A stretch of DNA of 64,000 bases, taken from contig MWCM01000005.1 of assembly GCA_002070055.1 (NCBI GenBank), forward strand, positions 2,015 through 66,014. The letters are read 5' to 3'. The notes beneath the pieces were generated by a model. That model was not told where the DNA came from. It was given only the letters and a program-made list of their open reading frames with translations, and searched no databases. The position numbers were made by a program, and so were the translations under genes. This DNA is from a bacterium ADurb.Bin212. Lineage in GTDB: Bacteria; Patescibacteriota; UBA1384; XYA2-FULL-43-10. Shown here one piece after another: positions 24,333 to 51,904 of the stretch. The number at the start of each line of letters is the position of its first letter. Positions within the stretch are counted from its first letter, which is position 1.

Positions 24333-25319
24333 TTACTCTTCGGAATAATATTTTTCAATCCTGATACTTTCCAACTTTCCAGTGCCCAGGGAGGCACCCA
24401 ATGCCTTAAAAGCGGCAGTTGAAAGATCAATTATCACTCCAGAATCTGAGTGGCTTATACCACCGCCTTTTATGGTCACTGTTACTCTTTTACCATTATT
24501 CTGGTTAACTACCACTACTTTCGTGCCGCGTGGCAAAGAGTTGTGAGCCGCAATCATCTCATTTGTGGCAACATACCACGTAGCTTTGCCCGTTCCATAC
24601 ACAATTACTTTGCTTCCGATTCTAACCACTTCATCAACACTTTCTGTAACAATTTTTGTAGAAATGTATGATTTTGACACCTCTTCTCCATCTACCCTTG
24701 TTACCAAATACGAAAGCTCTTTAACCCCGGCCAAACCTTTTTGTTCAACGACCTTATTCCCCTTCTCCATTGTTGGGTCTTCTTTCTTAACAACTTTATA
24801 TTTAATCTCTTCGCTTTCAACAATAACTGTTTTGGCGACTCTGCTGATTTTTATCTGCATGTTGTCCTCAATTTTGGAATCAAGAGGCAAAGATGTTTTA
24901 TCCTCCATGCCGAGAGCAATGTCTTTTTCCTTAAAAAGCTCTTCAATAGTTGATGACCAGCTGTGAAGCAACTGATATTTTTTACCATCGTATAGATTTA
25001 CCCTCGGCGCACGCTTGATAGTTATCTTGCCACCCATCTCTAAATATAAATCAGGGAAAACAGATATTTTGTCCTCGGGGAAAGAGATTATTTGCAGGTC
25101 GTTTAAAATTTCATTCAAGTTGCCGCCGTTACTGAATCCGTTCGATTCGATGATCTGACCATTCGGTCTTACGTCAACAACAAAATATGCTCTCTCCGGC
25201 AAGAAATCTGCGCGAGATTCGTAGTGATTAATATTCTTTGAATATGCTGTTGCCGAAAAAAATAAAACCGGCACAGCGACTAATGTTATGAAAAGACGCG
25301 AAATGTTCATACTCTGCAT
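24333..25319 (-). CDS. secreted cell-wall protein with G5 domain and C-terminal RlpA/3D-like double-psi beta-barrel
   Basis: Signal peptide MNISRLFITLVAVPVLFFSATAYS. Mid-region G5-like. C-terminal GKATWYVATNEMIAAHNSLPRGTKVVVVNQNNGKRVTVTIKGGGI...IIDLSTAAFKALG matches the RlpA-like DPBB pattern (ASWYG...TA.GE...TAAH.TLP.GT.V.V.N..NG.S..V..NDRGP...IDLS.AA...LG). Confidence 0.6.
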   Translation of the reverse strand: MQSMNISRLFITLVAVPVLFFSATAYSKNINHYESRADFLPERAYFVVDVRPNGQIIESNGFSNGGNLNEILNDLQIISFPEDKISVFPDLYLEMGGKITIKRAPRVNLYDGKKYQLLHSWSSTIEELFKEKDIALGMEDKTSLPLDSKIEDNMQIKISRVAKTVIVESEEIKYKVVKKEDPTMEKGNKVVEQKGLAGVKELSYLVTRVDGEEVSKSYISTKIVTESVDEVVRIGSKVIVYGTGKATWYVATNEMIAAHNSLPRGTKVVVVNQNNGKRVTVTIKGGGISHSDSGVIIDLSTAAFKALGASLGTGKLESIRIEKYYSEE

Positions 25320-25396
25320 ACATAATAACAGAAAAATATCCCTTTGCTTAATTGGCACAATTTAGATACAATATAGTTGTGCAGTAATGGAGGGAG

Positions 25397-25978
25397 ATGA
25401 AAGCAAGTGTCATCCTAAAAAGCAGCCTGATTGCTATTTTTGCAGTGGTGTTAACTGCAACCTTTTTATGGTTAACAAAACTCGATTCAAAAAATGATTT
25501 AGACAGAATGGCTTCTGCATCTGACATATCTGATGCTAAGGGCTTATTGCTAACCAAAAATTACTCAGAGTGTGTGGACAAACTCAAATACAGTGATTTT
25601 GAGAGTGATAGTGATATAGCACAAGCCAATAATGTTCTGGGACAATGCAATTACGCTCTTAAAGATTACGCTTCAGCATTGGAACATTTTGAAAGAACAG
25701 AATCGCTTTTGAAGGATAAAAAACAGTTATCAAGCCTGCAAAACCTTATGGCCAACACATACCGCGATATGGGAGAAAAAAACCAGGCCGCCATTTACTA
25801 TCAAAAAGCCCTAGACAACAATCCCGCAAATCAACAAGCGTCAATTAATTACTCTTATTCCCTGTTAGCCGAGGGAGATAAAATCAATGCCCAAAATGTC
25901 ATAAATGAAGCAATGTTAATTTCTCCCAACAATGAAGAACTTATCAAAATTAAGCTAAGTATCGAAAATGGCGCTTAA
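25397..25978 (+). CDS. TPR-repeat protein with N-terminal membrane anchor
   Basis: N-terminal TM helix, then TPR-like repeats (ALEHFERTESLL, AIYYQKALDNNPANQQASINYSYSLLAEGD). Confidence 0.6.
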   Translation: MKASVILKSSLIAIFAVVLTATFLWLTKLDSKNDLDRMASASDISDAKGLLLTKNYSECVDKLKYSDFESDSDIAQANNVLGQCNYALKDYASALEHFERTESLLKDKKQLSSLQNLMANTYRDMGEKNQAAIYYQKALDNNPANQQASINYSYSLLAEGDKINAQNVINEAMLISPNNEELIKIKLSIENGA

Positions 25979-26987
25979 AGACATATTTAAAAAATCCTCT
26001 TCACGAAGAAAAATCGATAGATCTGAAGGAGAAGAAAAAACTCCGGATATTATTTTGAGCACAAACAAGGCCATTGAGATTTTGTCGACACAAAAGCAAC
26101 ATCTAAATTCCAAGCAAGTTGAATTAAGTCTAGACAAAAAGCGTCTTAATAGAAAATTAGACCGCCAGATATTAAGAATCCACAGAACAAAAGAGCAAGT
26201 TGAAAAAAGGATAGAGTTTGTTCGAAACGGCGGCGCCAGGATTTCAATTCCATTCTTAAAGAATTCTGATCTATTTCTGCGCAGAAGACTTCTCTGGTAT
26301 AGGAATTGGCACAACAATTCAATCTCACCCAAACTTCACTTAACCGCCCTTGGGTCTTATCTAATAATCTCTGTCTTTTTAGCTATCATATTTATGCAGG
26401 GTGTGCCCAATAACACCTCCGCCCTTAATTCTGAACACCGTAAAACCTCTTTAGTATCTGCCATCTACACACCAGATAATCTGTCGCTTAAAAATAGCAA
26501 AGTGCAACTGCCTCAAGACGAGAAGCCGATATCTACTTTATATGAAGACAATTTAGCCGTTGACTTTTCCGATAAATCAAGCAAATTGGCCAGTGCTAAA
26601 ATTCGAACCATGGACAAGAACAAGCAAGAGCAATGGGTTGAATTTGTCTTGTTGCAACCGAAGGATTTACAACAACCCAGCTCTGAAAATATCAGCTCGA
26701 ACTCTTTAGTAAGCGCTTCAGCACATGCCGAACCGGACAATAGCCTGGTTGAGGCAAATATCGTTGATGTCACCAAAGAGATCAATAACAGTATAGTAAC
26801 CCTGAATGTTAATAATGCTGTTGCCGCAAAATATGAGGTCTCAAGCAACAATAGTCAAGCCACAGTTAAAGAGACTTTAATTATAGAAGACATTAGCGCA
26901 TTTAGTAAAAATCCCGACTATACGATCTCTTTTAGAGTAAAAACTCAAGGTCTAGCAATAATTCAAAAAGAAAACGGTGCCTATTAG
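25968..26987 (+). CDS. hypothetical coiled-coil/single-TM protein, translationally coupled on both sides
   Basis: Overlaps the TPR gene by 11 nt and the giant gene by 11 nt. Charged coiled-coil N-terminus and TM helix LHLTALGSYLIISVFLAIIFMQGV. Confidence 0.4.
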   Translation: MALKDIFKKSSSRRKIDRSEGEEKTPDIILSTNKAIEILSTQKQHLNSKQVELSLDKKRLNRKLDRQILRIHRTKEQVEKRIEFVRNGGARISIPFLKNSDLFLRRRLLWYRNWHNNSISPKLHLTALGSYLIISVFLAIIFMQGVPNNTSALNSEHRKTSLVSAIYTPDNLSLKNSKVQLPQDEKPISTLYEDNLAVDFSDKSSKLASAKIRTMDKNKQEQWVEFVLLQPKDLQQPSSENISSNSLVSASAHAEPDNSLVEANIVDVTKEINNSIVTLNVNNAVAAKYEVSSNNSQATVKETLIIEDISAFSKNPDYTISFRVKTQGLAIIQKENGAY

Positions 26988-29900
26988 CTTATCTGATTCT
27001 AATGGTTTAACGGTAATGAACATTGAGCCGCCAGTAATTGAAGACAACCGTGGTACCAAAGGTCAAATTAGCCTTGAAATAGTTGACGATGTCGCAACTT
27101 ACTTTATTGATAAAGACTACATCGAAAACGCTGAATATCCGATATTTCTTGACCCTACCGTAACGGTATCAACTTCAACTATCACAAATCCTAATTCATA
27201 TGCCAAAGACCGTACACTCTTAGAAACCAGTGACGGGACATTGGTGAATATATATTCTGACGGTGCCGCCATTAATTATCGCACCTCGTCAGACAAAGGA
27301 GCCAACTGGAGTTCCGCAACAAAAATAACAGATTCAGCAAATGCCGACGATAACGGCTTCTCCGCATGGATTGATGTGGATGATAATATCCATCTTACTT
27401 ACTCGGACAACAACACGAATCCTTACATATTTTACCGTCGCTTGTCTTACAGTTTTGCCACAACTGTCGTCTCAATCGGTGCAGAAAAAACCGTGGAATC
27501 ATCAGGGACCAGCCGTATGTATCCCTCAATTGTAGCCACAGAGTCATCAAACACTATTCACGTCGCTTACCGTTATTACGACGGAAGTGATTACACAATT
27601 AAAGTTAAGTCTAGCAGTGATTTTGGTGATAATTGGAGCGCCGCCTCTACTCTCTCTCCCGCTACCAATGCCAACGCCGCAACCTATCCCTGCGCAATTC
27701 TTTGGAACGACAAACCGGCAATTATTTATAATTATCAAAACGCCTCATTACGTTGGAATTATTACAACGGTAGCAGTTGGCAATCAGAAGGCTGGGACAA
27801 TGAATTGATAACAGCTGAAGTTGATGCTGATACCGGGCTAGAATTTACTGCAATAGAGTCGCCATTCAACAACTATCTACATCTTTCGTGGAGAGGAAGC
27901 GGCACTAACGGCATCAGGTATCTAAAAAACAACAATTCCGTAGCCGGTTGGGATGGAACCTCAACCGCCATAACTGCAGACCATAACGATAGATTTCCAA
28001 GTATTGGCGCCGGCACAAATGATTATATTAACCTTTATTACTCTGATTATGTTGGAGCTAATTCATATAATATCAAGTATATCTCTAAAAGTAGCGCAGG
28101 GTCTTTCGGGGCTGTTAACTCTGTGACCACGGATGACGCAAATAATTTAGTCTCTCATGCTGCCCAGAAAGCAACTTATTACAGGAACAATTCTTTGCTT
28201 TTTGATGGCACAGACGACCATGCCGACCTGCCAGATGGATTCTCCGATTTTACCGGAGGTTTAACATTGGAGTTGTGGGCATATCCTACCGCAGCGCAAA
28301 ATTACGCAAGATTTTTTAATTTTAGCAACGGCGCTCCAAATAACAACATTGTTTTTGGACGCACCGGCACAACGACGAATTTAGCATTTATTGTATGCAA
28401 CGGCACGAGCAGTTGCCCCACGGCAGTGACTGCCACTGGGGTACTTGAACTTAACAAGTGGCAGCATTTTGTCGTCACTCAAAGCGCAGCCGGAGCTGTG
28501 ACCATATATAAAAATGGAGTAAGCGTTGCCACCGGGACTCAGAATATCCCTACAAACATTACTCGCACCATAAATTATATCGGCCGAGGCGCTTGGGTAA
28601 CCGATTCATATTATAAAGGCAACATAGATGGGGTAAGAATTTACAATCGCAGCATTAGTTCAGGAGAGGTTACAGCACATTACCGTAGCGGAATCGGACC
28701 TAAAAAAATCCCCACAGATACAAATCAACTCGCGGCATATAATTTTGATGAGACCAGTGGCACCTCTGGCGCAGACGCTTCGGGAAATTCTATGACTGCC
28801 ACCCTTGTTTCTGGCCCCTCAAATCAGCACAATAGTGTGCCTTATAAAAATTCTAATAATTACGCAATCTACTCCCCCAACTCAAACGGCTACATTTCCA
28901 TTCCCGCCAATGCCTCAACCAATACCAACACAACCAATTTTACAATGGAAGCGTGGGTAAAGGCTAAATCTACCGGCGCTTGGCGTTGGATAATGGGCAA
29001 AAATAATAGTGGTAATTGGCTTGGCATTAACTCGGGCGGATATTTAAACTTTTCCACTGCCGGAGGAGCCAATAATATCTCCTCTACTGCTTATGTTACC
29101 GACGAAAAATGGCACCACGTGGCTGCAACCTTCGACACCGGCACTCTTAAGTTATATATGGACGGCAAAAACACCGATACTTGGACAGGGAAAAGTGTAT
29201 CTGCCCAAACCGGGGCAACTTATATCGGCTATAACGGATATGAATATTATTACGGTTGGATTAACGAAGCAAGGCTTTGGACAAAAACACTATCGGCCGC
29301 TGACATACTTAATCGATTTTCTGCCGGCTTGTTTGCAACTGGTGCACCAGAGGCTAATTTAGGCGGTGGCTGGTCTATGAACGATGCTTCCGGCACTACC
29401 GTAGCCGACTTTAGCGGTAATGGTAATACTGGATCGTTTGTTAACACCCTCTATTTCGATAACGTATTAAAAACCACTCTTTCGACTCCTTCCGTTACTT
29501 TTGTTGAGGGCACAGGTTCACCATACAATATTAAGTGGGGGCCTAAAGCAAAAGTATGGACTGGCATGGGAGCCAACACCAACTGGACAACCGCAGAGAA
29601 TTGGAGCGACGGTGTTGCACCAGTAGGCGGTGACAACCTGTTGTTTGACGGCCCAACCGGTGGCAGTTCGGTTGCCGATTCAGTACCGGACAACCTTGGT
29701 TCCATAGAAATTGTTAAGGAGAGCAGCATAACATTATATTTCAGCAAACATCCATCTACAAACGTTGACACTTTTAAAATTAACTTAACCGGTGATTGTA
29801 TTTTTAATGGGGGCATAGTTCAATCTGAAGGTGATACTACCGTCATGCACGCAGGAATTACAGATGGCCAAGGCAACGAACTATCCGCGTCCAATATTTT

Positions 29901-32900
29901 TGTCGGCCCCTCTGGCATCATTAATTTAGATGGTCTTGGCTTTCCTGCCAGGCAAGGTCCGGGACGCATATACCTGACAAACGACGAGAGAGGTTCCGGG
30001 CATGGCGGACAAGGTGGCGGGAGCCCCTATGGCGGCACAGCTTATGGCGACTTCTCGGACCCTGTTTCACTGGGCAGTGGAAACTACCGTGTAGCCGGAG
30101 GAGGCGCTTTAAAACTTAACGCCAGCCAGTCAATTATATTAGATGGTTCGCTAAGCGCCAACGGCTTAAGTAATTATGGCGGAAGCGCCGGAGGATCTTT
30201 TAATATAAGCGGAACCTATATTGCTGGAGTGGGTAGTGTTAAGGTTAATGGCGGAGCCGGAGACTATGGGACCGGCGGTGGCGGAAGAATTAAATTATCC
30301 TCAAACACTAATAATTTTATCGGCACATTACAGGCCAAAGCAGGAAATCAATCCGCCGGTATCAACGGAGGCGCAGGCACGATATTTAAAAAACTAGCTT
30401 CACAGACTTACGGCGATTTAATTATCGATAACGGCGACGCCACTCAGAACGGGCGCAACCAAACCTCAGCCTATTTAAAAGGCTCAAGTGGCGATACGGG
30501 CAGTTACCAATTTGATTCAATTACATTTAATAACTACGGCAAACTCGAGATTATCTCCGGACAAAGTTTAGCACTTAACAGTGGCACTATTACTGGTACC
30601 AAAACAGCGGGAGTAATAAATGCCGGAACAGTAAGCGTGCCGGACAACTGGTCTCTCAACTACTTCTATTCACATAAAAATGGCACATTATCCGGATGGA
30701 CTCAAACAAATTTAACAATAACCTCTGCCGGTAAATTAACTCATTATATCAATGATTCTACAGACACCTATGGCCTTAATCTAACACTAGATAGTCTAAC
30801 CGTAGATAGTGGAGGTGAGATTGACGTTAGTGAAGTAGGATATGCTTCGCAACAAGGCACAGGCAAAGGTAAGGTTATTACTGGTGGTTATGGCGATGGT
30901 GGTGGTTACGGAGGAGAGGGAGGACGAAACGACACCGATATGACTAGAAGTAACCCTTATGGAGATTATTCTAATCCAACTGAACTTGGTAGTGGCGGCG
31001 CTTACTCAGGTGGCGGCGGCAAAGCTTTATTAACCATAACTGGGACAGCCACAATTAATGGCAGTCTGCTCGCAAACGGACAATCAGCAAACTCCGGAGG
31101 GTCGGGTGGAAGTATTAATTTATCGGCTGCCACAATCACCGGCGGCGGCACAATCACGGCCAATGGTGGTTCGGGTGGCACAATTTACTCCGGTGGCGGC
31201 GGTGGTGGCAGGATACGTCTTGCCTCTACGGCCAACACTTTTAGCGGTACTCTAACCGCCCGAGGAGGCACAGGCTATAGTAGCAATTATTCAGGTGGGC
31301 CAGGAACTATCTATAAAAAACTTTCCAGCCAAAGCTATGGCGATCTAATTATTGATGATAACGGCAATACTCACCACAATAGATATTTTATGGGGGCATA
31401 CTTAAAAGATAAAGCTGACAGCGGTAGCTATCAATTTGATTCAATACAATTCTCTAATTATGGAAAACTTGAAGTTTTAGGAAGTCAGATAATTAATGCA
31501 ACTGCAACAACTATTACCGGCGACAAAAATTCCGGTTTTTCAAACGCTGGCACAATTAATCTACCCTCTACATGGAACCTCTCCTATTTATATATGCACA
31601 AAGGGGGCACAATAAGTGATCTTGCTAATAAATCGATTGTAGTGACATCAACCGGCTTCCTGACACATTATTTTAACAACTCCGAAGAGACATATTCAAT
31701 AAATTGGACATTAAATTCAGTTGAGGTGCAGACTAACGGCGAAATTAATACTACAAACAATGGTTATGCCGCCAATAATGGCCTCGGGCCCGGAGCATCA
31801 GCTGGCACGCCTTCTGGCTCTGGTGGTGGTGCATACGGCGGAAACGGTGCTGCTGGCACAGTTGGTGCAGGCGGAACTGCCTACGGCTCGGTAACAAACC
31901 CGACCAATCTTGGTTCAGGTGGCGGTGGCGGAGCTAATGCCGGTGGCGGTGCAATTATTCTAAATGTTAATACTCTGAATTTGTCCGGAACACTTGCCGC
32001 AAACGGAGCTGATAGTGCCGCCAATGATTACGCAGGAGGTGGTGCAGGGGGCAGCATAAATATCACTGCTAATACAATCAGTGGTTCTTCTGGCTCAATT
32101 ACTGCTAACGGCGGCTACAGTAAATGGAGAGGTGGCGGTGGCGGTGGCGGTAGAATTGCCATAAATTACACCACTGACTCATACACAGGCGGTCTATCGT
32201 CTCTAGCAATCTCCGCCAAAGGCGGCATGAACGGAGTGACTTGGGGTGAAGATGGTACACGCAAAGGTGCCGCCGGAACTATATATATCAAAAAAACCTC
32301 CGATGCTTACGGCAGTCTGAAGATTGATAATGCTGTAGCCACCACTACTGTAGCTAGGACCCCTTTGACTCTTCCATTGGCTTATAGCAATGTTACAATT
32401 TCTAATTACGGCAAAGCTACCATATCGACCAACGCTGATACGGCTCAGAACACTTTGGCCGTGAACGGAAATTTAACCGTGGGTGCAAACTCCGAGCTGA
32501 TACTCAACTCCGATAACGATGGCACTCCTGCCGCTGGGGCTTGGCCAATTATTACTGTGACTGGTGATGCTAATATTTCCGGTTCTGTTACCTCTAACGC
32601 TACCGGCTATATACATGATCTGGGCAGTGGCAAGGGCAACATAAGCGGTTCTTATGGTTCTGGTGCAGGGTATGGCGGCAGTGGTGGCAATTCCGCCAAC
32701 GGAGCAATTGGTGGGGTAACTTATGGCACAGAACGTGACAATAACTATATTGGAAGCGGAGGCGGTGGGGCAAATGGTGGGGCAGGTGGCGGCATGATAA
32801 AAATGTCGGTATCCGGATCTCTTGATCTAAGCAACACCGGAACTATTGCAAGCAACGGTGGAGCTGGGGGCACAGACGGTGGCGGTGGTTCTGGAGGTTC

Positions 32901-35900
32901 AATTCAGATCGTTTGCACTACTCTATCCGGCTCGGCTGGTAGCACCATCTCAAGCAATGGCGGAGCCGGAGGAGCAAATGGTGGCGGAGGCGGTGGTGGT
33001 AGAATAACAATTTATCCATCCAATGATAGTTATCTTGGCACTCTAACGGCAACCGGCGGTTCCGCCGGTTCTGGTGGAGCCACTGCTGGAACAAACGGCA
33101 CAGCAATTATTCAACACACACCTGGCTCCCTGACTATGAACTCACCTAACGACGCCGCTACTGATCAAATACAAAAAACAGTATTTCGCTTTAACTCGAC
33201 AGACATCGACAACGACTGGATACAATACAAATTACAGATTGCCGCAGATATAAACTTCAGCGATGGCGTTTCCACCTTTGACCAAACTCTCTCTCAAAAC
33301 CCAAGTAGTGGAGGTAGAAGCGCAATATTCTCCAATCAAGACAGAACCACGGGCAATGTCGCCGGAAGTGACGGATACTCTTCGGGCAGAGAAGCAATTC
33401 TCACACTGCAAACAAATCTGACTCAGGCAAGAACATACTATTGGAGATTCTACGCTTATGATCCAGAAGGAGTCGACTCTTTTGACGGCAGCCAGCACTG
33501 GTCACCAGCTTCAAGCATCAGATCGTTTACTGTTGCAAGCATCGACCATATTTCGTTCTCGACACCCCAACAAGAGAGCGTTGTTACTTTCTGTTCTGCA
33601 GTTATGACTGTAAATTTAAGAGACTCGAGTAATAACAATATCTACTTAACAGAGGACGACGGCCCCACAGCACTACAACTTAGCGCTGATTCAGCTTCAG
33701 GCTCATTTTATTCCGATTCAGATTGTGAGACGGCTATACCTAGCGATCAGGTTATAGTTGCAGTTTCTGGTAACTCTGCCAGTTTTTTCTACAAGGACAA
33801 CCAACCTTCGCCGGTAAACAATTATTTTACAATCACGGTTGCTGAAACACCATCTGAAGGATTAACAGATGCTACTCAACAGATAAGAATTAAGCCAGGC
33901 GATTTAGGGTCTTTTGAAATATCAGGGGCTCCGGTATCAATAGTTGCCGGTGCGGCTTTCTCTTCTCCAACAAACGACATTACCGTAACTGTAAAAGATA
34001 TTTTTGGGAACACAAAGAACGATTGGACCGGGCAAATCTGGTTCTATTCCTCCGATTCGCAAGCTGATTTAGTCTATGACGACTCAAATAAATATTCATT
34101 CACTTCCGGCGAAGGTCTGGATAACGGCACACACACTTTTGATGGCGGAAACTTCGTCTTAAAAACCAAAGGTAATCAATCTTTAGTAGTCCACAACTCA
34201 AGTGGTGGTGAATACGACGAAGTGGTAGCTATAACCGTTAACCCTGCGGCTATAGACCACTTCTCTCTCAGCGACTACCCACGCACAGCCAGCGGAAAAT
34301 TCGCCATGAGTTCTTTTTCTTGGGACACACCAGGATATTCAGACGCTCCATACGACCCGATTGTCACAGCATACGACCTTTACGGAAACATAAAAGATGA
34401 TTATGTTGGAGAAACATGGTTTGAACTCTACAAATCCACCGATGCGGCCGGTAATCCTTTGGATTCTAGCGCAAATTATGCCTTTGATTACGATTATACT
34501 AATCACTATACTTTTACCTCGGGTGACGGATTAGATAATGGCACTCACACTTTTGATGGCTCCGGCTTTACAGTAGTAACCGCAGCCAACGATCTACGCC
34601 TCAGAGTAAAAACTTCGGCGAATGGAGGTGTTTACACCGACTTTACGATAACAGTGAAGCCTCAATCGATTGACCACTTCCTTATTAGCTCAACTCCAAC
34701 CCTCTCCAGAAATGGAATAGATTGGGACAAAGAAGTAGACGAGGAGTTCATCGAAGACATCACCGTCACTGCATACGATACCTTTGGCAATGTAAAAACA
34801 GATTATTATTATAACGACGCAACAAAAGCCGGCATGATCTACTTCTATTCAAGCGACCCGCGCGCCGTACTTCCCTATTCCAAAACAGTCAGCACAGATT
34901 CCTCTGCCTGTTTAGCCTTCCCGCAAGCTGCCAACGGTTCTTATACTTTAGATACAACCAACACCCCCTTAAACTACTTTAAATTCTTAACAGGGGGGCC
35001 ACAAACGATCTCAGTTTCAGAATGTATTGATCCTACCTCTGCATACGCCACTGGAACTGATAATAAATATGACCCTAGGCTCGAAGGAGTAAATCCGCTC
35101 AAAGTTATGGCCGCAACGGGCCAAATCCCCGCCACAGGTGATGATCCAAATAAAATATTTGTAGCTAATCATGTGCCCGGCTCAACCCACACAGCAGTCG
35201 ACCATTCTGACGATTCGAACGATCTTATCGAAGCTGGACCAGGCCATGAGCAGGCAACTCTTTCTTGGACTAATCCCTTTGATATCCCAAGCGACCCCGC
35301 TCTTGACGCTCAGGCATATATTTATCGTTGCACAACAAACTGTGAAAATATCGCAAACTTTAGTAGGATTATTACAGATCCGGCCACAATTAGCGTAACC
35401 GCTGGAGAAGTTTCTGAATACACCGATACAGGGCTAACAAATGGAACCGAATATTTTTACAAGCTCTCTTATGCTTATAAACGACAGGATGATAGTTATA
35501 TCGAGAGCAACAAATCAATCACAGTCAGCACAACTCCGGCAGACATTGCACCAAGAAATATCTCTGCCTCACAACTTGATATAAGTGACAGCACAAACCC
35601 GGGCAAGGTAAGAGTGGACTATCAACTACGTTGGGATTCGACTGTTTCCTTGGCATACTATAACCCTGCCACCAACTCATGGCATAATGCATCACCTAGC
35701 GCCATGAGCGGAGATGTGGGCCCCGGCATCACTGGAGATGAAGCACTAATATCTCACACCGCTTATTTGGACCCTAACATTGATTTCGACGGTCAATATT
35801 TAACCGATACCTTTAAGGTTAGGGTTAAGGTAACAGTCAACTCAGCCAGCACTTATGCCGATTCAGCGACTCTTGATCTTGATTCAAAAAATCCGGCTGG

Positions 35901-37689
35901 CGCCACCCTGGTTGTGGATGCGACAGACGGCAACAGCGCCGATCTTACCTTTTCTGCCTCGGATAATAATGAGCTATCCATGAAAGTCGCTGGAGATCCC
36001 GACTTTACTGGAGTAGACTGGCAAGCGTTTACCGAAACAATCGAAGATTTTGGAATCAACGGTATGAACTCTGTCTATGTAATTTATAGAGATTCTTTTA
36101 ATAACACCACAACAGTAGAACAAGAAATTTTTAGCGCGCCACAAAACGTAAGCATTAAGGACGGTTCAAGCGCGGCGTCACAGACATATCGGCTACTTAT
36201 TACTTGGGATGATCTAATACCAATGCCGGAACATTACAATGTTTTTCGTTCAATAGATGGCGAAAATTACTCTCACTACGACACCACTGTTAAAAACGCC
36301 GCAATTGATATTAATCTTGATCCGGATACGCTTTACTCATATAAAATTCAAGCAGAAGATGGGGCCGGCAATAAATCAGCTCTATCGGATGCCGTTTCGT
36401 CACGTCCGGGAACCGCCCCCGACGTAACCGCAGACCCGGCAGTTGAGTTGTTTGGCTGGAAACAAGATGTGGGAGTAAGAGCAAGGATTACTTGGGATAC
36501 CGACCAGAACTCCGATTCTTTTGTCGCTTTTGCCAAAGAGCCGATTAAAAGCGGTTCCGTATTAGATACCGAGTCAGGCAACGAAGATGCAGTCTCTGTA
36601 GTTGGATCCCCCGATATGGTAACATCGCACGAGATAAATCTCTCCAATCTGGAGCCATCGACTAAATATTATTTTAAGGTATTATCTAAAAACGAAATTC
36701 AGATCACCGGCTACTCAGATGTGTTTGAGTTTACTACCCCGGAAAGAGTTTTGCTGTTAATTTCTGGCATGAAAATTACCGACATTACCAATAATTCAGC
36801 ATTTATCTCTTGGACCACATCAAAAATATCAACCAGCTTGGTTGAATATGGGCAAACCAGCCAGTATGGTGAAACAATTGAGGACCTGAGCCAGAACACC
36901 GAGCATAAATTCAAGCTGGAAAATCTGATATCAGGAGACTACCATCTTCGGGTCAGCGCCAGAGATGTAGATGGCAATTTAACTATCTCTGACGAATATA
37001 TCTTCAATATTCCACCAACCCCTACTATTACAGATATAGCCATCACTGACATTAGCGACAACACTGCAAAAGTTTCTTGGAGCACAAATGTGTCATGTAA
37101 TTCAAATGTCGATATTGAGAGCGATAGTGGCAACGGCTCACAAGGCAATGCTAGTTATACTACAAGCCATTCTGTAAACCTTGTGGGGTTAAGCGCCAAA
37201 ACCAACTATACCTTGAAGATAAGATCAGTTGACACATACGGTAATACTGCTATCTCGGAGAGCAGACAGATTACTACCACCGCAGACTTGTTTGCCCCAA
37301 AAATTATTAACCCTAAATCAGAGATAACTTCAACCGGATCAGGTGAAAACATTAAATATCAGTTGATTGTATCGTGGGAAACAGATGAGCCGTCTACCAG
37401 CAAAGTTGAGTTCGGCCAGGGTGTTGGTAATGCCTACGAATCATCCAGCAAAGAGGAGTTGTCCTTAAATATGACTCATACAATAATTGTTACTGATCTA
37501 AAACCAAACTCTGTTTATCACTTTAGAATAAAAAGTGGCGATAAAGCCAATAATGTCGCATACTCTGATGATTACACTATTACCACCCCACCCAAAGAAA
37601 AAGACATTATTAGCATAATAATAAACGCTATTGTCGGGCCTATGAACGATATCTACCAGGGAGTAATTAATAAGTTATTCAAAAGGTAA
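26977..37689 (+). CDS. giant (3570 aa) multidomain surface protein: BNR/sialidase-like N-terminus, LamG-like lectin domains, three Gly-rich beta-helix-like super-repeats, four C-terminal FN3-like domains
   Basis: A single uninterrupted 10.7-kb ORF. Asp-box/BNR repeats ([18 protein letters not shown]). LamG-like blocks ([13 protein letters not shown]...LELWAYP...[17 protein letters not shown]...[10 protein letters not shown]...LKLYMDGK). Periodic [11 protein letters not shown]...TANGGSGG...[10 protein letters not shown] units. C-terminal FN3-like modules ([17 protein letters not shown]..., [16 protein letters not shown]..., [19 protein letters not shown]...). Confidence 0.8.
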
Positions 37690-37690
37690 T

Positions 37691-38446
37691 ATGGCCAAAA
37701 CCGTTGTAATCAGTGCCAAAAATTTAATCAAAACTTTTCAGGCCGGCGGAAGCGACCTGACTGTTGTAAACGATGTTTCTTTTGAAATCGAATCTGGTGA
37801 TTTTGTGATGTTCTTCGGTCCTTCCGGTTGTGGTAAATCCACTTTATTAAATATAATCTGTGGCTTAGAGAAACCGACAAGCGGAAAAATTAAGATCAGA
37901 GATGAATCTCTTGGCGATTTAAGGGATGATAAACTAGCCTTTTACCGACGCACAAAAATTGGCATTGTCTTTCAACAGTTTAACCTGTTGAAAACCATGA
38001 CTAACCTGAAAAACGTAGCACTACCCCTAATCTCAAATGGAGAGCCGGCCGGTAAAGCCTTTCATCGTGCAGCACAGATATTAAAAATGGTAGGGCTGGA
38101 GAAACACCTCAAAAAAAGACCTACCGAACTTTCGGGCGGGCAGCAGCAACGTGTCGCAATTGCAAGAGCCTTGGCGGCGAACCCATGGATTATTGTTGCA
38201 GATGAGCCAACCGGCAATCTGGACTCAAAATCAGCAGATGAGGTGGTAGAGATTCTGAACATATTGAATCAGAGATCAAAAAGAACGGTAATTATGGTTA
38301 CCCATAATCCGGAGTATTTAAAATTTGCTAACAAGATTTTTCACCTCAAAGACGGGCAGATTATAAAAAGTGAACATAATCACAATCAACCCAAGATAAA
38401 AGACATCGAGGGATTTAAAATCAGTGAGCATAACATAGAAAGTTAA
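37691..38446 (+). CDS. ABC transporter ATP-binding protein (MacB/LolD-like)
   Basis: Walker [10 protein letters not shown], signature [15 protein letters not shown], Walker [13 protein letters not shown]. The start codon is 2 nt after the giant-gene stop. Confidence 0.9.
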
Positions 38447-38454
38447 TAATTGGT

Positions 38455-39639
38455 ATGAAATTTTCACAAATCATCGCTACCACTTGGGAAAACCTTATGG
38501 GCAATAAGATGCGCACCCTACTAACGGTCAGCGGCATCTCAATTGGAATCGCCACAATAATATTCCTGGTTTCTTTGGGCTATGGTCTGCAGGAGTTTTC
38601 TGTTAAAAGAGTTAGCTCACTAGACGCGCTCTCAACACTGGATGTTTCTCAAGGCAAAACTGCAAGTTTTAAGCTCGATAAATCCAGTATCGAAAATATC
38701 TCCAAGATTAAGTATGTAGAAAAAGTCAGTCCAATTATCTCGCTTGGCGGAAAAGCGAGCTACAACGACAAAAAAACCGACCTTGTAACCACAGCAGTTT
38801 ATGATAATTTTTTTAACTACGAAGACGTAAAAATTGCCGAAGGCGGAGTATTTAGTAACTCAGAAGAGAAGATTCTTATTTCTAGCGCTCTTGCTAAGAC
38901 CTTGGGGGCAGATAATAAGGCATTAATCGGTCAACAGCTAGATTTGTCGGTTTTATTACCAAAGGCCGATAAAGATGCGCCACCCCTCAAACTTAAACTA
39001 ACCATATGTGGGGTAGTCCAAGACAACAGTTCAACTTTCGCCTACATCTCCCAAAATTTAATTGAAAATGAGCTGGAAGACGGCACTATTTATACTGCCC
39101 TTAAAGTTAAGCTGCAATCTCAAGACAATCTAAATCAGGTCAAAAATGAGATAGAAGCAAGCGGCTTTTCGGTCAGCTCTGTTGCTGATACCGTATCTCA
39201 AATTAGCCAGGTCTTCGCAATAGTAAGAATTGTCTTAGCTTTGTTCGGTGGTTTTGCTTTGTTGGTGGCCGCTATTGGCATGTTTAACACCATGACTGTT
39301 GCCCTGCTTGAAAGGACAAGAGATATCGGTATCATGAAATCAATTGGAGTAAACAATAAAGATGTATATTTAATGTTCTTATCTGAGGCAGTAATAATAT
39401 CTATACTGGGTGGAATGCTAGGAGTTGGACTTGGCGCGCTAATCTCCGCATTGATTAATGTTATTATTACCGGACTCGCCAACTTAGTGGGAGCAGAACC
39501 GGTAACACTCTTTTATACTCCGCTCTGGTTTTCGATGTCTGTTTTTGCTTTCTCGGTGCTAGTAGGAGCTTCCACTGGTTTTTATCCCGCCAGAAGGGCC
39601 TCGAAGCTAAACCCGCTTGATGCCTTAAGATACGAGTAA
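38455..39639 (+). CDS. ABC transporter permease, FtsX/MacB-like (large periplasmic loop plus C-terminal FtsX domain)
   Basis: TM1, then a ~220-aa extracytoplasmic domain, then 3 TM helices of an FtsX-type domain. Paired with the upstream ATPase. Confidence 0.85.
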   Translation: MKFSQIIATTWENLMGNKMRTLLTVSGISIGIATIIFLVSLGYGLQEFSVKRVSSLDALSTLDVSQGKTASFKLDKSSIENISKIKYVEKVSPIISLGGKASYNDKKTDLVTTAVYDNFFNYEDVKIAEGGVFSNSEEKILISSALAKTLGADNKALIGQQLDLSVLLPKADKDAPPLKLKLTICGVVQDNSSTFAYISQNLIENELEDGTIYTALKVKLQSQDNLNQVKNEIEASGFSVSSVADTVSQISQVFAIVRIVLALFGGFALLVAAIGMFNTMTVALLERTRDIGIMKSIGVNNKDVYLMFLSEAVIISILGGMLGVGLGALISALINVIITGLANLVGAEPVTLFYTPLWFSMSVFAFSVLVGASTGFYPARRASKLNPLDALRYE

Positions 39640-39687: not shown

Positions 39688-41712
39688 TTATATTCTATCT
39701 ACTAGCCCTTCCGGAATATGAGCAATAAAACGTGATTCAGGATTAGCCTGAAACCTGCCATATAAGTTTCGCTCAAAGGTAGAAATTAAATAAAGCCGCT
39801 TTTTGGCTCTGGTTATCCCGACATAACAAAGACGTCTCTCTTCCTCCATCTCGCTGGCATCTTGTAGCGAACGCGAATGAGGGAATATCCCCTCCTCCAT
39901 ACCAGCAATAAAAACATTCTCAAACTCGAGGCCCTTCGCAGAATGTAAAGTCATAAGAGTAACCGTGTTTCCTGATTTGTCTAAGCTATCAGTGTCTTGA
40001 ATTAACGCTACTCGTTCTAAAAAATTCGAGAGTTGTTCCAGCTGTTGGTTGTGTTTGGAAATTTCATCAGAATTTATGAATTCTTCATTTGGAATTATCT
40101 GGAGCTGAGATGCGACAGTAGAAAGCTCAAGCACATTTTCCCATCTACCTTCACCCTCAGGAGTCCCATCTAAAAGATATTTTTTATAGCCGCTCTTAGT
40201 TGCCACATGTTGAATTAAGTCTCCTAGTTCCATATCTTTAGCCACTTCTCTTATCTCCGCAATCATTACAAGAAATTCTACCAGTTTTTTGGAAATTTGC
40301 AGATTTGAAATTTCATTAGGATTTAGAAACTCAGATTTAGATATTTCCCTAACTTGCTCAAGCGTTTTCTCTCCAATTCCCCTGCTTGGGGCGCCTGAAG
40401 CGCGACTTAAAGACTCAAAATCCATCGGGTTCAAAATCAGGCGCAAATAGGCGATAATATCTTTAATCTCCTTGCGATCATAGAATCTGACACCGCCCAC
40501 AACCCGATAAGGAATGTTCATACGCATAAAAGACTCCTCCAGAGCCCTCGACTGGGCATTAGTGCGATAAAGCACGGCAAAATCCGTATAGTTCCCCTTA
40601 CTTTCACCTTTTCCCTTTTCCCTTTTCCCTCGCATTAGAGATCCGATCTCTAAAGCGATAAATTCTGCCTCATCCTTCTCGTTTAAAGCTTGGTAAATTG
40701 TAATTGGACAGCCGCTTCCTAACTCGGTCCAAAGAACCTTATCGGTTCTGTTTTTATTTTGTCTTATCACCTCGTTTGCCGCAGAAAGAATTGTATCTGT
40801 GGAGCGATAATTTTGTTCTAGTTTAATAACTTTTGCCCCCGGCCAATCACGTTCAAAGTTTAATATATTGCGAAAGTTTGCTCCCCTCCAACCATATATT
40901 GCCTGATAGTCATCACCGACCACCATAATATTTTTGTGTTTCCTTGCCAACAGCTTAACCCAAACATATTGAGCTTGGTTCGTATCCTGATATTCGTCAA
41001 TCATAATATACTTAAATTGGCCTTGGTATCTATCTAAAATCTCCGGATTTTTTTGGAGTAACTCTACACATTTCATAATTAGATCATCGAAGTCGAATGC
41101 ATTGGCCTTGCGCAAATATTGTTGATATCGGACATAAACATCAGCCACTACCCTCTCCATCGGAGAATTAACATATTTTTTATACTCTTTTTCATCAATT
41201 AATTCATTTTTTGCCCCACTGATAAAATATTGCACCGCCTGAGGGTTATAATTCTTTTCGTCGATGTCAAGTTCACGCATTGTTCTTTTTATTATTGATT
41301 TTTGATCGCTGGAATCATAAATTGTAAAATCTCTTTCGAAACCGATATTATGCGCCTCGCGACGCAAAATGCGCACACAAATCGAATGAAATGTGCCGAG
41401 CCACGGTAGCCGTAAAATATCAGTTTTCAGGTTATTGGTATCAGGTTGCAGTCCGGCATTCTGGTTTTGAGTTTGTGTTTTTTTGGTTAATAAATCACTC
41501 ACACGATTTGCCATTTCCCCTGCCGCCTTATTGGTAAAAGTTACCGCTAAAATATTAAATGGGGAAACTTTTTTTTCGCGCACTAAATAAGCTATGCGAT
41601 GAGTTAGGGCTTTTGTTTTACCGCTACCGGCGCCCGCAAGCACAAGTACAGGCCCCTCAGTTTGCAGAACGGCCTTCTTTTGCTCGGAATTTAAGTTTTC
41701 AATAATATCCAT
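39688..41712 (-). CDS. UvrD/PcrA-family ATP-dependent DNA helicase (with low-complexity insertions)
   Basis: Walker A AGAGSGKTKALTHRIAYLV, DEYQDTN (DExx), motif VI VGITRAKKRLYL. Insertions KKTQTQNQNAGLQPDTNNL and GKREKGKGESKGN. Confidence 0.85.
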   Translation of the reverse strand: MDIIENLNSEQKKAVLQTEGPVLVLAGAGSGKTKALTHRIAYLVREKKVSPFNILAVTFTNKAAGEMANRVSDLLTKKTQTQNQNAGLQPDTNNLKTDILRLPWLGTFHSICVRILRREAHNIGFERDFTIYDSSDQKSIIKRTMRELDIDEKNYNPQAVQYFISGAKNELIDEKEYKKYVNSPMERVVADVYVRYQQYLRKANAFDFDDLIMKCVELLQKNPEILDRYQGQFKYIMIDEYQDTNQAQYVWVKLLARKHKNIMVVGDDYQAIYGWRGANFRNILNFERDWPGAKVIKLEQNYRSTDTILSAANEVIRQNKNRTDKVLWTELGSGCPITIYQALNEKDEAEFIALEIGSLMRGKREKGKGESKGNYTDFAVLYRTNAQSRALEESFMRMNIPYRVVGGVRFYDRKEIKDIIAYLRLILNPMDFESLSRASGAPSRGIGEKTLEQVREISKSEFLNPNEISNLQISKKLVEFLVMIAEIREVAKDMELGDLIQHVATKSGYKKYLLDGTPEGEGRWENVLELSTVASQLQIIPNEEFINSDEISKHNQQLEQLSNFLERVALIQDTDSLDKSGNTVTLMTLHSAKGLEFENVFIAGMEEGIFPHSRSLQDASEMEEERRLCYVGITRAKKRLYLISTFERNLYGRFQANPESRFIAHIPEGLVDRI

Positions 41713-42875: not shown

Positions 42876-45074
42876 TTACAATACTAACTTCTTGTTTCTG
42901 GTCCTAAAGTAATATAAACCAACCAACAATGAAGCCAATGCAACAAAAGCGGCTATTGCATAAACATAAATATTATCGTAAGTGTTGGGATTGCTCGGAG
43001 TATCGCTATAGGCTATAGCATAGGTAGAATAAGAGTCAGTATCGAAGGACAATATACCTGTTGTCTCGTTATAGGAGCTATCTAATTTGGTTACAGTGCC
43101 ATCGTGATCTCTGAGCACAGAATAATTAGAGTGGCCTTTTAAACTGTCTGCCAACTGCAAGTTAACTGACATATCTTGGCCCAGCTCAGTGATATTAGTC
43201 TTCCATGCTTCGTCAGATGATCCTTTTAAAACTACTTCATTTAGAGTTAAATCGACCAAGCCTCCGATAGTGGACCCACTGGCAAGCGGTTGAAAAACAC
43301 TATTATCTCCGTTATTGCTATCCGTTACGGAAAATTCGGCATTGCCATTAATTTCTCCCTCCGGCATGGCTATTGAGGCGCCGGAAACCTTACCACTAAC
43401 AACTGAGATAATATCACTGGATCGCTCAAAGATTGCGCTTAGATGCAGATGGTTGTTTGGCATTGTAAAGGTATACGATGCTTTGCCCTCATCCGGCACA
43501 GTTTGATTACCGTTTAAACCGCCTGAAACATATTGATAACCGTAATCTGGTAACAGCTCAATTGTAACAGTGCTTCCCGCTTCCAAAGAGTAATCCGTAT
43601 AACCACCAGAGGTAAATCTGTAACCATTTGCCGCAATCACTCTCACCGTTCCGTTTGTAACAATTGAATCGTCTGCCCCTGGAATGTTCCAGCCTAACTG
43701 ATACAAAGTTCCGGCCGTTGACTCTAATAGGAAATTTCCCTCTGTTGATGTCATGCGATATTTGTTAGTAGCGTCGGTTCCTTCCTCGCATGTGACAGTG
43801 GTCGGCAGTGGATTTTCCTCCTCTGTGCCAGTCATGTCGGTCCATGGCCAATGTGATGCTTCTGGTGTAAAATCTCCCAAGGAAGACGTATAAGACAAAT
43901 CTACTGTTCCGCCGCCGGATACTCGAACCGAGTTAACGTTAGCAGTTGCAATATCACTTGATGCCACTGTTAAAGTCTTGCCGGCACCAGATTCCACTAT
44001 CATTCCATCACCTTCTGCCGGAGTTTCATCATAATACTGAAGAGCAGTACCAGTAGTGTAAATCGTTAAGTCCCCCATATGAACTTCCACTTCGCTTGCC
44101 ATAATACCCTTTGAACTTGGTGTTTCGGCTGATCCGATGGTAAAAGCTCTATCGTAAGTGTTAATCATACCCTGTGTAAATATACCGCCTGCCAGATTTA
44201 TGTCACCCGCAACATCACTCTCACCACCGGATATATTTACCCTACCATTCATGTTTATCGAAAATCCGTCTTCATTTTCAGCGATATTCGCATCCCCAGT
44301 AATAATTAACATCCCATCTCCAATACCGGTAATATATCCAAGAGTAATGCCCTGATCAATATTTAATCCGTAACTACCCATAAAACCCGGTTCAATGCTC
44401 CAACCCTCACCACTTGCCGAAGTTACTGGAGGCTCAGCGGTTTCATCAATTACCAAGGTTCCGTCTATTGATAATTGCAACGGGTCACCAGGGGGAGGGC
44501 CTTCTGGGTCTCCGGGACCACCGGGACCGGGGGCACCATCATAGTTATAAACATTATCCCCAACTATAAAGGTGTCATCGGTATTAACATTAGTTCCACT
44601 CAAAATGCTAACCGTTATAATATCATTTAAGCTTGTTTCGTCACCAATAGTAAGTCTTTTGCCTTCACCAATTCTTATGGCTGTGTTGTCGGCGCTGAAA
44701 GCACTAATAGAAAGAGAAGATTCATCACCTTTAATGGTCACATTACCCGCTACTGATCTAATTGCAGGATCAGGGCTAGTGCTGACGACTGTATTCGTCC
44801 CAACAAGGTCGATAATCAGATCATCGTCGGCAGAGATATTTGCAATATCCGCGTTATTTAAAGTTAAAGTCATTGTTGGCACATCAAAGGACACACCAGC
44901 TATGCCATGGTCACTATTATATCCTCCGGCTTGGGTGTAAATTGAAGTTCCGTTGACAGTAATAGAGGTCGAGTCCAAGGCAGACACCATTCTAAATGAT
45001 ACCGCCCCCAAAGCCAAAAACGCGACAAAAGTTACAAGCGTGATTAGCTTGTTAGAAAAAAACTTTCTCATCAT
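42876..45074 (-). CDS. secreted surface protein with C-terminal hydrophobic anchor and basic tail (candidate sortase substrate)
   Basis: Signal peptide MMRKFFSNKLITLVTFVAFLALGAVSF. Pro/Gly stretch GAPGPGGPGDPEGPPPGDP. C-terminus IYVYAIAAFVALASLLVGLYYF followed by RTRNKKLVL. GGAGG RBS. Confidence 0.55.
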   Translation of the reverse strand: MMRKFFSNKLITLVTFVAFLALGAVSFRMVSALDSTSITVNGTSIYTQAGGYNSDHGIAGVSFDVPTMTLTLNNADIANISADDDLIIDLVGTNTVVSTSPDPAIRSVAGNVTIKGDESSLSISAFSADNTAIRIGEGKRLTIGDETSLNDIITVSILSGTNVNTDDTFIVGDNVYNYDGAPGPGGPGDPEGPPPGDPLQLSIDGTLVIDETAEPPVTSASGEGWSIEPGFMGSYGLNIDQGITLGYITGIGDGMLIITGDANIAENEDGFSINMNGRVNISGGESDVAGDINLAGGIFTQGMINTYDRAFTIGSAETPSSKGIMASEVEVHMGDLTIYTTGTALQYYDETPAEGDGMIVESGAGKTLTVASSDIATANVNSVRVSGGGTVDLSYTSSLGDFTPEASHWPWTDMTGTEEENPLPTTVTCEEGTDATNKYRMTSTEGNFLLESTAGTLYQLGWNIPGADDSIVTNGTVRVIAANGYRFTSGGYTDYSLEAGSTVTIELLPDYGYQYVSGGLNGNQTVPDEGKASYTFTMPNNHLHLSAIFERSSDIISVVSGKVSGASIAMPEGEINGNAEFSVTDSNNGDNSVFQPLASGSTIGGLVDLTLNEVVLKGSSDEAWKTNITELGQDMSVNLQLADSLKGHSNYSVLRDHDGTVTKLDSSYNETTGILSFDTDSYSTYAIAYSDTPSNPNTYDNIYVYAIAAFVALASLLVGLYYFRTRNKKLVL

Positions 45075-45134
45075 AACCCTCCTACACTAAAATATGATAA
45101 AATTATTTATATATTGAGGACACAAAAAACTATT

Positions 45135-51875: not shown

Positions 51876-51904
51876 TTGACTTAAATTGTATTTTGTGCTA
51901 TAAT
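51876..51904 (+). promoter_or_regulatory. near-consensus sigma70 promoter TTGACT-N17-TATAAT upstream of the muramidase-amidase gene
   Basis: TTGACT 51876-51881, a 17-nt spacer, TATAAT 51899-51904. AAGGAGG RBS at 51985-51991, 8 nt before the ATG at 52000. Confidence 0.5.

Follow-up and report, generated by a model that had tools for sequence, protein, structure and literature searches.

Members of the MacB/FtsX superfamily of ATP-binding cassette (ABC) systems, including MacB, LolCDE, FtsEX, HrtBA, and BceAB, use ATP-driven mechanotransmission to act on extracytoplasmic or outer-leaflet substrates, none of which is known to be conducted across the membrane. The known partners of these systems are lipoproteins, hydrolase activators, toxins, and antibiotics. 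To our knowledge, neither tailed giant FN3 proteins nor tetratricopeptide repeat (TPR) proteins are a known partner class of the superfamily, and none was found in the literature searched. Candidate phyla radiation (CPR; Patescibacteria) bacteria make up a large share of bacterial diversity, and the cultivated ones live attached to other microbes. As far as we know, little has been established about the ways in which they mount and control very large surface proteins. Here, we analyze a stretch of 64,000 nucleotides (nt) from bacterium ADurb.Bin212 (assembly GCA_002070055.1, contig MWCM01000005.1, positions 2,015 to 66,014), which we will call the window. The locus at positions 25,397 to 39,639 is a module of four genes, probably transcribed together, from a CPR bacterium, encoding a TPR protein, a 3,906-aa surface protein (the giant), and a two-gene MacB/FtsX-type ABC machine (the ABC pair).

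A single base splits the giant gene in the deposited assembly, the giant protein ends in a conserved C-terminal tail, and tailed genes, ABC pairs, and TPR genes recur as neighbors in other genomes. Judged from these gene neighborhoods, a functional link among the giant, the ABC pair, and the TPR gene is supported. We consider it possible, at somewhat less than an even chance, that the tail, the MacB-type ABC pair, and the outward-facing TPR protein form an undescribed CPR-wide surface-protein sorting or anchoring system for giant Sec-exported fibers, which fixes them to the cell or loads and unloads them.

Like MacB, LolCDE, and FtsEX, the ABC pair has a separate ATPase with catalytic motifs and a permease of four transmembrane (TM) segments with MacB_PCD and FtsX domains, and it likely performs ATP-driven work outside the cytoplasm. 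It differs from them in having no MacA/HlyD adaptor and no TolC in the cluster, in its CPR host, and in its recurrent partners, a giant FN3 protein bearing the tail and a TPR protein. The nearest functional analog is FtsEX with EnvC, PcsB, CwlO, and RipC, in which an ABC machine holds an extracellular protein by a helical element. On the other hand, the FtsEX partners are peptidoglycan hydrolases or their activators with long coiled coils, whereas the candidate partner here is a giant lectin/FN3 fiber with a short C-terminal amphipathic helix. The ectodomain also sets this permease apart from FtsEX, as it matches MacB_PCD (aa 21–235) and the FtsX models score far below their cut-offs.

The closest conceptual analogs are LPXTG/sortase, PEP-CTERM/exosortase, PGF-CTERM/archaeosortase, and the C-terminal domain of the type IX secretion system. 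In these systems, as in the present one, a strictly C-terminal element is carried by many large Sec-exported surface proteins, several clients per genome are possible, and one client often lies beside the machinery. Unlike LPXTG and PEP-CTERM signals, the tail has no hydrophobic TM helix and no tripartite signal of motif, TM helix, and basic cluster, though its end is basic. The linked machinery is an ABC pair with a TPR protein and not the transpeptidase of sortase-type systems. The giant adhesins of type I secretion systems (T1SS), such as LapA with LapBCE and the RTX adhesins, also combine a giant repetitive adhesin-like protein with an adjacent ABC transporter and with C-terminal information. 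They differ from this locus in the fold of the ABC transporter and in the presence of RTX repeats, a membrane-fusion protein, and an outer-membrane component; the giant of the window has an N-terminal Sec-type anchor.

Linkage of tailed giant genes and the ABC pair

The linkage was examined in loci from genomes or metagenome assemblies compared with the window, which are designated by L-numbers (L001, L039, L089, and so on). A permease scan of one genome per species returned 564 relatives, and the best 80 loci were analyzed. All of these 80 lie on contigs of metagenome-assembled genomes, and most are labeled as Patescibacteria/CPR lineages; the automatic labels Bdellovibrionales and Gammaproteobacteria on some of the loci are taken to be mislabels. 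The ATPase and permease genes adjoin in nearly all 80 loci. In 15 of the 80 (12 upstream, 3 downstream), a large FN3-rich open reading frame (ORF) with the tail is the immediate same-strand neighbor of the ABC pair, and two more downstream giants are probable, cut by contig ends, giving 15–17 of 80. Only one non-adjacent tailed ORF occurs in these loci. The adjacent state is scattered over nearly all deep clades of the permease tree and is absent from one large clade labeled mostly as Moraniibacteriota.

A separate observation was made in five loci of this mostly Moraniibacteriota-labeled clade (L018, L026, L062, L068, and L074). A protein of ~930–1,200 aa is encoded there on the strand opposite to the ABC pair, 3–4 kb upstream of it (about 3.0–6.8 kb into the loci, minus strand), and it resembles the LamG region of the window giant (aa ~384–839).

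A scan of metagenomes gave 77 loci with an ORF ending in the tail, 63 of them with enough flanking sequence. The ATPase and permease genes immediately adjoin the tailed gene on the same strand in 40 of these 63 loci, lying downstream in 37 and upstream in 3. The downstream pairs are mostly within about 100 nt or about 250–550 nt of the tailed gene, and the same arrangement of tailed gene and ABC pair is found in L088. In the tail-bearing loci that have no ABC pair, no second conserved neighbor is evident. One Falkowbacteria-labeled genome encodes two tailed proteins, neither of them beside an ABC pair.

By an order-of-magnitude estimate, these adjacency frequencies are orders of magnitude above chance for one specific neighbor among the genes of a CPR genome. 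That both gene orders are found speaks against plain inheritance of the adjacency. A link between the giant gene and the ABC pair had been proposed from the window alone; their adjacency is seen again in deep CPR lineages, with either gene order, and both of the independently drawn samples show it.

The conserved C-terminal tail

The tail is a predicted helix of ~25 residues directly after the last FN3 domain of the giant. A tail follows the last FN3 domain in all 15 giants that adjoin ABC pairs in the permease-sampled loci, with the consensus ..Y.ILTP.Q.ESVFQ.I.KNFE..FGWV.K..., and the FN3 region is likewise common to the homologs adjoining ABC pairs. A tail-only profile of 42 positions, searched against 1.84 billion representative proteins, matched 774 clusters with E ≤ 1e-3, of which 291 reach E ≤ 1e-10. 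Among the top 148 proteins, the match ends at most four residues from the C-terminus in 142; 90 are at least 1,000 aa long, 55 are at least 2,000 aa long, and the longest has 6,321 aa. An N-terminal hydrophobic segment is present in 58 of the 80 long tailed proteins of the global library that begin with methionine. The window tail itself scores 45.7 bits on the profile, and its variant is kept in the nearest relative, P0028.

The hydrophobic moment (muH) of the tail consensus is 0.51, a value reached by 0.35% of shuffles, which makes the tail strongly amphipathic. The median maximum 19-residue hydropathy is 0.6, too polar for a TM segment. AlphaFold2 predicts the window tail as a single helix with moderate confidence, not packed on the FN3 domain (residues 99–123 of a 125-residue model, corresponding to aa 3544–3568), and models the last FN3 domain as a beta-sandwich with a predicted local distance difference test (pLDDT) score above 90. 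No Pfam or NCBIfam model covers the tail, and no NCBIfam sorting-domain model matches it. The literature searched contains no paper describing the tail or its link to MacB-type transporters.

The tail also occurs outside giant proteins. In L027 (1–8397) and L060 (1–8626), a tail-less giant ORF exceeds 2,200 aa; next to it come a distinct ~530-aa protein, with its own signal peptide, FN3, and the tail, and then the ABC pair. Small stand-alone proteins consisting of FN3 and the tail have been seen in P0020 (141 aa) and L025 (226 aa). The tail-bearing stalk may therefore sometimes be a separate subunit.

The TPR protein

The TPR protein named in the earlier note is borne out by its Pfam matches, with an N-terminal TM segment in addition. 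Its N-terminus is short and basic, a single TM segment follows (aa 5–23), and the rest consists of ~150 aa of TPR repeats; all members of the family share this layout. Its TPR domain is predicted to face outward, on the basis of the positive-inside rule. The window protein matches one from "bacterium ADurb.Bin212" at 100% identity.

An iterated TPR search over all ORFs of the 80 genome loci found only five relatives, all of them at the module. The TPR gene directly follows the permease gene in L001, L002, L003, and L024, and in L039 it follows the giant that comes after the permease. Other members of the family come after the tailed gene, in L086 and eight of the metagenome loci. Since a TPR profile search retrieves mostly generic TPR proteins, only its top four matches are informative. 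The genes occur in three circularly permuted orders: TPR–giant–ATPase–permease in the window, L089, and L091; giant–ATPase–permease–TPR in L003, L105, L109, and L111; and ATPase–permease–giant–TPR in L039 and L139. The presence of the family at the module in three gene orders supports the proposal that the TPR gene belongs with the giant and the ABC pair.

The ABC pair

The previous identification of a MacB-like ATPase and an FtsX-type permease is upheld by Pfam domains, sequence motifs, and four TM segments. The ATPase matches ABC_tran (E = 1.7e-36) and its motifs are intact: Walker A GPSGCGKS (aa 43), Q-loop VFQ (aa 93), LSGGQ (aa 147), Walker B IIVADEP (aa 167), and H-loop VTHN (aa 203). 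In the permease, MacB_PCD covers aa 21–235 (83.6 bits) and FtsX covers aa 263–387 (75.4 bits), and the hydrophobic segments lie at aa 21–39, 253–271, 312–330, and 352–370. The ATPase motifs and the permease architecture are those of MacB/FtsX-type (type VII) systems.

The best NCBIfam matches of the ATPase are LolD, MacB, and FtsE, with the DevA glycolipid exporter and bacteriocin exporter ATPases also among the top matches. All of the scores compared fall below the equivalog cut-offs: 218 against 308 for LolD, 214 against 966 for MacB, 207 against 265 for FtsE, and 203 against 296 for DevA. For the permease, LolCE scores 83 against 362 and FtsX at most 51 against at least 225. The ABC pair is classified by its architecture and motifs as a member of the MacB/FtsX superfamily, and by these scores as an equivalog of no characterized subfamily. 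No HlyD-family match was found on any gene of the cluster, which distinguishes it from the tripartite MacAB-TolC systems. The nearest permeases are 47–49% identical and come from the Berkelbacteria-labeled loci L002 and L003 and the Saccharibacteria-labeled locus L001; an exact-match look-up of the window permease found no record.

Several variants of the ABC genes have been observed in the compared loci. Extended ATPases of ~435–470 aa are encoded in L050 (8654–9964), L009 (3569–4879), L022 (8297–9607), L039 (8378–9763), and L027 (8466–9785). Their extension contains two copies of a motif resembling GG.G(L/F).K..A.K.A..(V/L)E and has no Pfam match. In the ATPase of L001 the extension is shorter and resembles a helix-hairpin-helix. 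Tandem duplications of the ATPase and permease genes occur in L008 (8303–13905), L019 (8383–13882), and L041 (5208–11145), which are labeled Falkowbacteria, Parcubacteria, and Moranbacteria. In L005 (1–4025), a tailed giant is directly followed by a permease, and there is no ATPase gene on the 7.4-kb contig.

One giant gene split by a single base

The locus had been described as a cluster of five genes. The coordinates of the five ORFs, their location on the + strand, and their junctions (−11, −11, +1, and +8 nt) were all exact on re-checking, but the second ORF ("gene 2") and the 3,570-aa ORF are one gene of 3,906 aa, and the cluster has four genes. One extra T creates an apparent stop at 26985–26987 and an apparent GTG start at 26977; the annotated GTG start of the giant is the first start codon after an in-frame stop at 26959–26961. 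The independent assembly Logan DRR381268 (L091) is 99.95% identical to the window over 15.3 kb, and the only gap in these 15.3 kb is one T at window position 26984/26985 (CCTATTAGC versus CCTA-TAGC). The gene after the TPR gene is called there as a single 3,906-aa product. In L089, a more distant relative, the TPR gene is followed by one uninterrupted 3,903-aa gene, which is collinear with gene 2 (78% aa identity, aa 1–338) and then with the giant ORF (86% identity). Deleting the extra T from the window sequence gives an ORF of 3,906 aa.

Runs of A (CAAAAAGAAAAC) were first suspected as the frameshift site, and the alignments place the frameshift at TATTAG. The extra T may have arisen in assembly or may be a genuine lesion of the population concerned. 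The earlier note had regarded fragmentation of the giant ORF in other assemblies as evidence against its proposal; the opposite was seen, as the gene is more complete in L091 and L089. For the annotation, this means that one inserted base of the deposited assembly turns a single 3,906-aa gene into two entries, a "hypothetical membrane protein" and a giant that appears to have no signal.

Gene 2 is composed of a K/R-rich coiled-coil-like segment (aa 1–124), a TM segment (aa 125–143), and an S/N-rich segment. The part before the TM segment is net positive, with 30 K+R against 14 D+E. Given the undivided gene of L091 and L089, gene 2 is the N-terminal part of the giant, with its cytoplasmic segment and signal-anchor, and the S/N-rich part is predicted to be extracellular. 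It is not a separate coiled-coil membrane protein, as had been thought, and not a component or adaptor of its own. A role as a MacA/HlyD-type adaptor was considered and rejected, given the lack of an HlyD match, the position of the coiled-coil-like segment on the cytoplasmic side of the TM segment, and its being part of the giant. No Pfam or NCBIfam family matches gene 2, and Pfam and PDB sequence searches with the reconstructed junction of genes 2 and 3 found nothing. Gene 2 and the N-terminal 400 aa of the giant have no homologs in the word-indexed protein search or the metagenome scan, and by this measure the region appears to be lineage-specific.

The assignment of gene 2 explains the missing signal peptide of the giant. 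The earlier statement that the giant has no N-terminal signal from its called start holds for the annotated ORF and fails for the intact protein, in which aa 125–143 form the TM anchor. An N-terminal signal or anchor is present in all seven N-terminally complete homologs at the loci (L050, L039, L011, L015, L027b, L060b, and L017).

Domains of the giant protein

The features of the locus are collected in Table 1. The two LamG domains and the FN3 domains of the earlier description score above the Pfam gathering thresholds. Laminin_G_3 matches in two stretches with 148.4 bits against a gathering score of 27.6 (E = 2e-43), and the Toxin_R_bind_N and Laminin_G_2 matches in this region are weak. 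At the C-terminal end, fn3 (66 bits) and Pur_ac_phosph_N (69 bits) mark an array of FN3-like repeats, four or five in number. Support for the BNR call is weak. The BNR_2 match reaches 21.0 bits where the cut-off is 31.4 (E = 2.3e-4), the canonical Asp-boxes number only two (SSDKGANW at aa 104, SSDFGDNW at aa 213), and neither the word-indexed protein search nor the metagenome scan found a homolog of the region.

A long beta-helix stalk had also been proposed. The AlphaFold2 model of a Gly-rich module is all-beta at low confidence (mean pLDDT 56, predicted template modeling score 0.61). In a Foldseek search with the module, the best PDB match, a tapirin beta-helix, has E = 0.02 and none reaches 1e-3, and all the weak matches are beta-helix proteins. 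This gives weak support to modules with a beta-helix-like structure, and the model is too uncertain for a fold to be named. The three repeats at aa 2288–2680 may be Ig-like, a reading made without a domain match. No RTX or HemolysinCabind domain was found in the giant with Pfam, and the protein is rich in S, T, and N.

Table 1. Features of the module and its flanking genes (positions in the window).
Feature	Position	Strand	Basis or remark
Divergent neighbor gene, G5/DPBB	24333–25358	−	Bounds the block on one side
Small TPR protein, 193 aa	25397–25978	+	Pfam TPR_2, TPR_8, TPR_1; overlaps next gene by 11 nt
"Gene 2", 5' part of the giant gene	25968–26987	+	339 aa; collinear with the single genes of L089 and L091
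Rest of the giant surface protein	26977–37689	+	Annotated 3,570 aa; true protein 3,906 aa
Frameshift site, one extra T (TATTAG)	26984–26985	+	DNA alignments to assemblies in which the gene is intact
Asp-box (BNR-like) region, perhaps a propeller of sialidase type	27262–27780	+	BNR_2 below Pfam cut-off
Two LamG/concanavalin-like lectin domains (aa 410–565, about 623–770)	28204–29286	+	Laminin_G_3
Four Gly-rich modules of ~300 aa (starts aa 987, 1287, 1595, 1876)	29935–33111	+	Internal repeats, 37–50% identity
Three internal repeats of ~115–140 aa (aa 2288–2680)	33838–35016	+	33–37% identity
C-terminal FN3/Pur_ac_phosph_N array, probable stalk	36310–37596	+	Pfam; internal repeats
Conserved C-terminal tail	37594–37686	+	Alignments, tail profile; predicted amphipathic helix, lineage variant of the consensus
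ABC ATPase, MacB/LolD/FtsE-like clade, 251 aa	37691–38446	+	Begins 1 nt past the giant's stop codon
MacB/FtsX-type permease, 394 aa	38455–39639	+	Four TM segments; ~210-aa extracytoplasmic domain between TM1 and TM2
Convergent neighbor gene, UvrD-type helicase	39688–41712	−	Bounds the block on the other side

Gene organization and neighborhood

The four genes are probably co-transcribed. Indirect support comes from their junctions (−11, +1, and +8 nt), from their position as a same-strand block between genes on the opposite strand, and from promoter-like and terminator-like sites that are no commoner within it than expected. A consensus scan found 40 promoter-like sites against 34.6 ± 5.4 expected from shuffled sequence, and 14 terminator-like sites against 15.9 ± 4.6. 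The earlier note held that internal promoters or terminators would speak against an operon; sites resembling them are at chance level. The 11-nt overlap of the TPR and giant genes is kept in the relative L089. The window is 100% identical to contig JAKJEL010000001.1 of GCA_022705445.1.

A classical surface-protein anchoring system lies about 3–6 kb from the ABC module as a separate locus. It is composed of a sortase gene (45114–45971, + strand) divergent from the gene of a 732-aa protein that has an InlB B-repeat-like domain (42876–45074, − strand), followed by an M23 peptidase gene (46071–47036). Elsewhere in the window, a 618-aa ORF (48837–50693) starts with a PlsY-type glycerol-3-phosphate acyltransferase domain (aa 12–193), and its remaining ~400 residues match no family. 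Two islands of high GC content stand out in a genome of ~0.40 GC and could be foreign DNA or regions of biased composition. The island at 9975–11288 (0.565) covers a 437-aa ORF with a weak CN_hydrolase match, and the one at 51904–54009 (0.60) covers a 701-aa ORF with a C-terminal Amidase_3 domain.

Proposed mechanism and alternative explanations

In the proposed mechanism, the giant would cross the membrane via Sec, using its N-terminal signal-anchor, and would display the Asp-box region, the two LamG domains, the Gly-rich beta modules, and the Ig-like repeats on an FN3 stalk. The tail would serve as a signal for sorting or docking at the C-terminus. Once the giant is exported, the permease would recognize the tail by its extracytoplasmic domain, with the TPR protein as a co-receptor that perhaps presents it; short helical peptides and C-terminal peptides are common ligands of TPR domains. 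Cytoplasmic ATP hydrolysis would then do mechanical work outside the cell, seating or retaining the C-terminal end of the giant or moving it out of the outer leaflet of the membrane. We infer Sec export, an outward-facing TPR domain, physical binding of the tail by the ABC pair or by the TPR protein, and an anchoring outcome. The ABC pair would probably come into play after Sec export, because the complete homologs have N-terminal signals and the permease is MacB-type. Anchoring is favored because the FN3 stalk is near the C-terminus and the binding domains lie nearer the N-terminus, as in C-terminally attached wall proteins. Recognition of the tail by the ABC machine, with anchoring or another form of handling as the outcome, is in our judgment about an even bet.

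Several observations weigh against this mechanism. About 60 of the 80 orthologous ABC pairs have no adjacent giant, and the primary role of the pair may be broader or different. The earlier note had held that conservation of the pair without the giant would speak against a dedicated module; such conservation is seen in these ~60 loci, and the other side of the comparison is the 15–17 loci in which a tailed giant does adjoin. The share of 63% (40 of 63) in the metagenome loci may be an overestimate, as that scan was seeded with giants known to adjoin ABC pairs. Among tailed proteins sampled from protein matches, an ABC pair is adjacent in one of seven and a TPR gene in one of seven; these contexts come from a protein-level search with a profile of the last FN3 domain and tail, which gave short fragments only, and the seven form a small, weak sample. 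The window tail is divergent, with a 5-residue insertion and no FGW motif. Most CPR ATPases of the clade carry a C-terminal helical extension of ~200 aa that is absent in the window, L002, and L003, and given this absence the machine may differ between lineages. The N-terminal anchor of the window protein may persist; both ends of the giant would then be held at the membrane, and simple C-terminal anchoring would be a poorer fit. Contact of the tail with the permease or the TPR protein is putative.

Recognition of the tail is shared by a Lol-like release, in which the tail would stick in the outer leaflet after Sec export and the MacB-type machine would extract the giant to the wall, the S-layer, or the medium; only the outcome is different. 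Release is consistent with LolD and LolCE being the best NCBIfam similarities of the ATPase and permease (below the cut-offs), with a tail that is amphipathic and not a TM segment, and with several tailed proteins per genome away from the ABC pair, as for one machine with many clients. However, no acceptor or carrier protein is evident, unless it is the TPR protein, and the FN3 stalk next to the C-terminus resembles C-terminally anchored wall proteins, whose tail end stays at the cell. We regard release as unlikely, though it deserves to be kept in view. The link between the genes could also be indirect. The ABC pair would then export or flip a small molecule by which the giants are modified or cemented (such as a glycolipid, glycan precursor, lipid anchor, or peptide), or it would protect the envelope, and the adjacency would reflect co-regulation. 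The DevA and bacteriocin exporter ATPases among the top matches, the majority of orthologous pairs with no giant beside them, and a giant rich in S, T, and N that could be glycosylated are all compatible with such a role. It leaves unexplained a strictly C-terminal helix common to the neighboring genes and an outward TPR protein that co-migrates with the tailed gene even where no ABC pair lies directly downstream, and we consider it rather improbable.

The near-universal presence of the pair in the sampled CPR lineages (564 relatives) would suit a housekeeping FtsEX- or Lol-type system placed beside giants by chance or inherited synteny. Chance is at odds with adjacency in 40 of 63 and 15–17 of 80 loci, far above expectation by the order-of-magnitude estimate, and with junctions of 1 nt and 8 nt that join the giant, ATPase, and permease genes. 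Inherited synteny is at odds with the two gene orders and three TPR positions, which imply that the association has been rebuilt repeatedly. This explanation is very improbable. The least probable of all is T1SS-like export, in which the ABC pair itself would move the giant across the membrane with the tail as secretion signal. It would account for a conserved element that is strictly C-terminal, like T1SS signals, and for an ABC pair immediately downstream. On the other hand, the permease has MacB_PCD and FtsX domains and no ABC_membrane-type domain, Sec-type signals or anchors are present on the intact giant and all seven N-terminally complete homologs, and the cluster has neither RTX repeats nor an HlyD-type adaptor. 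MacB-type transporters have no transmembrane substrate channel in published structures. Export of the giant by the ABC pair, as put forward earlier, is thus unlikely. Attachment or anchoring at the surface, the other part of that proposal, is plausible as inferred above, and the terms adhesin and epibiont are drawn from the domain content and the CPR affiliation.

Implications

For the MacB/FtsX field, recognition of the tail by the ABC machine would add a new partner class, giant fiber proteins held through a C-terminal helix. The tail itself is a short sequence tag marking hundreds of giant surface-protein families, and the locus offers a concrete handle on them in the form of candidate clients, a candidate receptor, and an energy source. 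If this mechanism is true, ultra-small bacteria could control, and possibly power, giant surface proteins from inside the cell, and such proteins may serve in host attachment.

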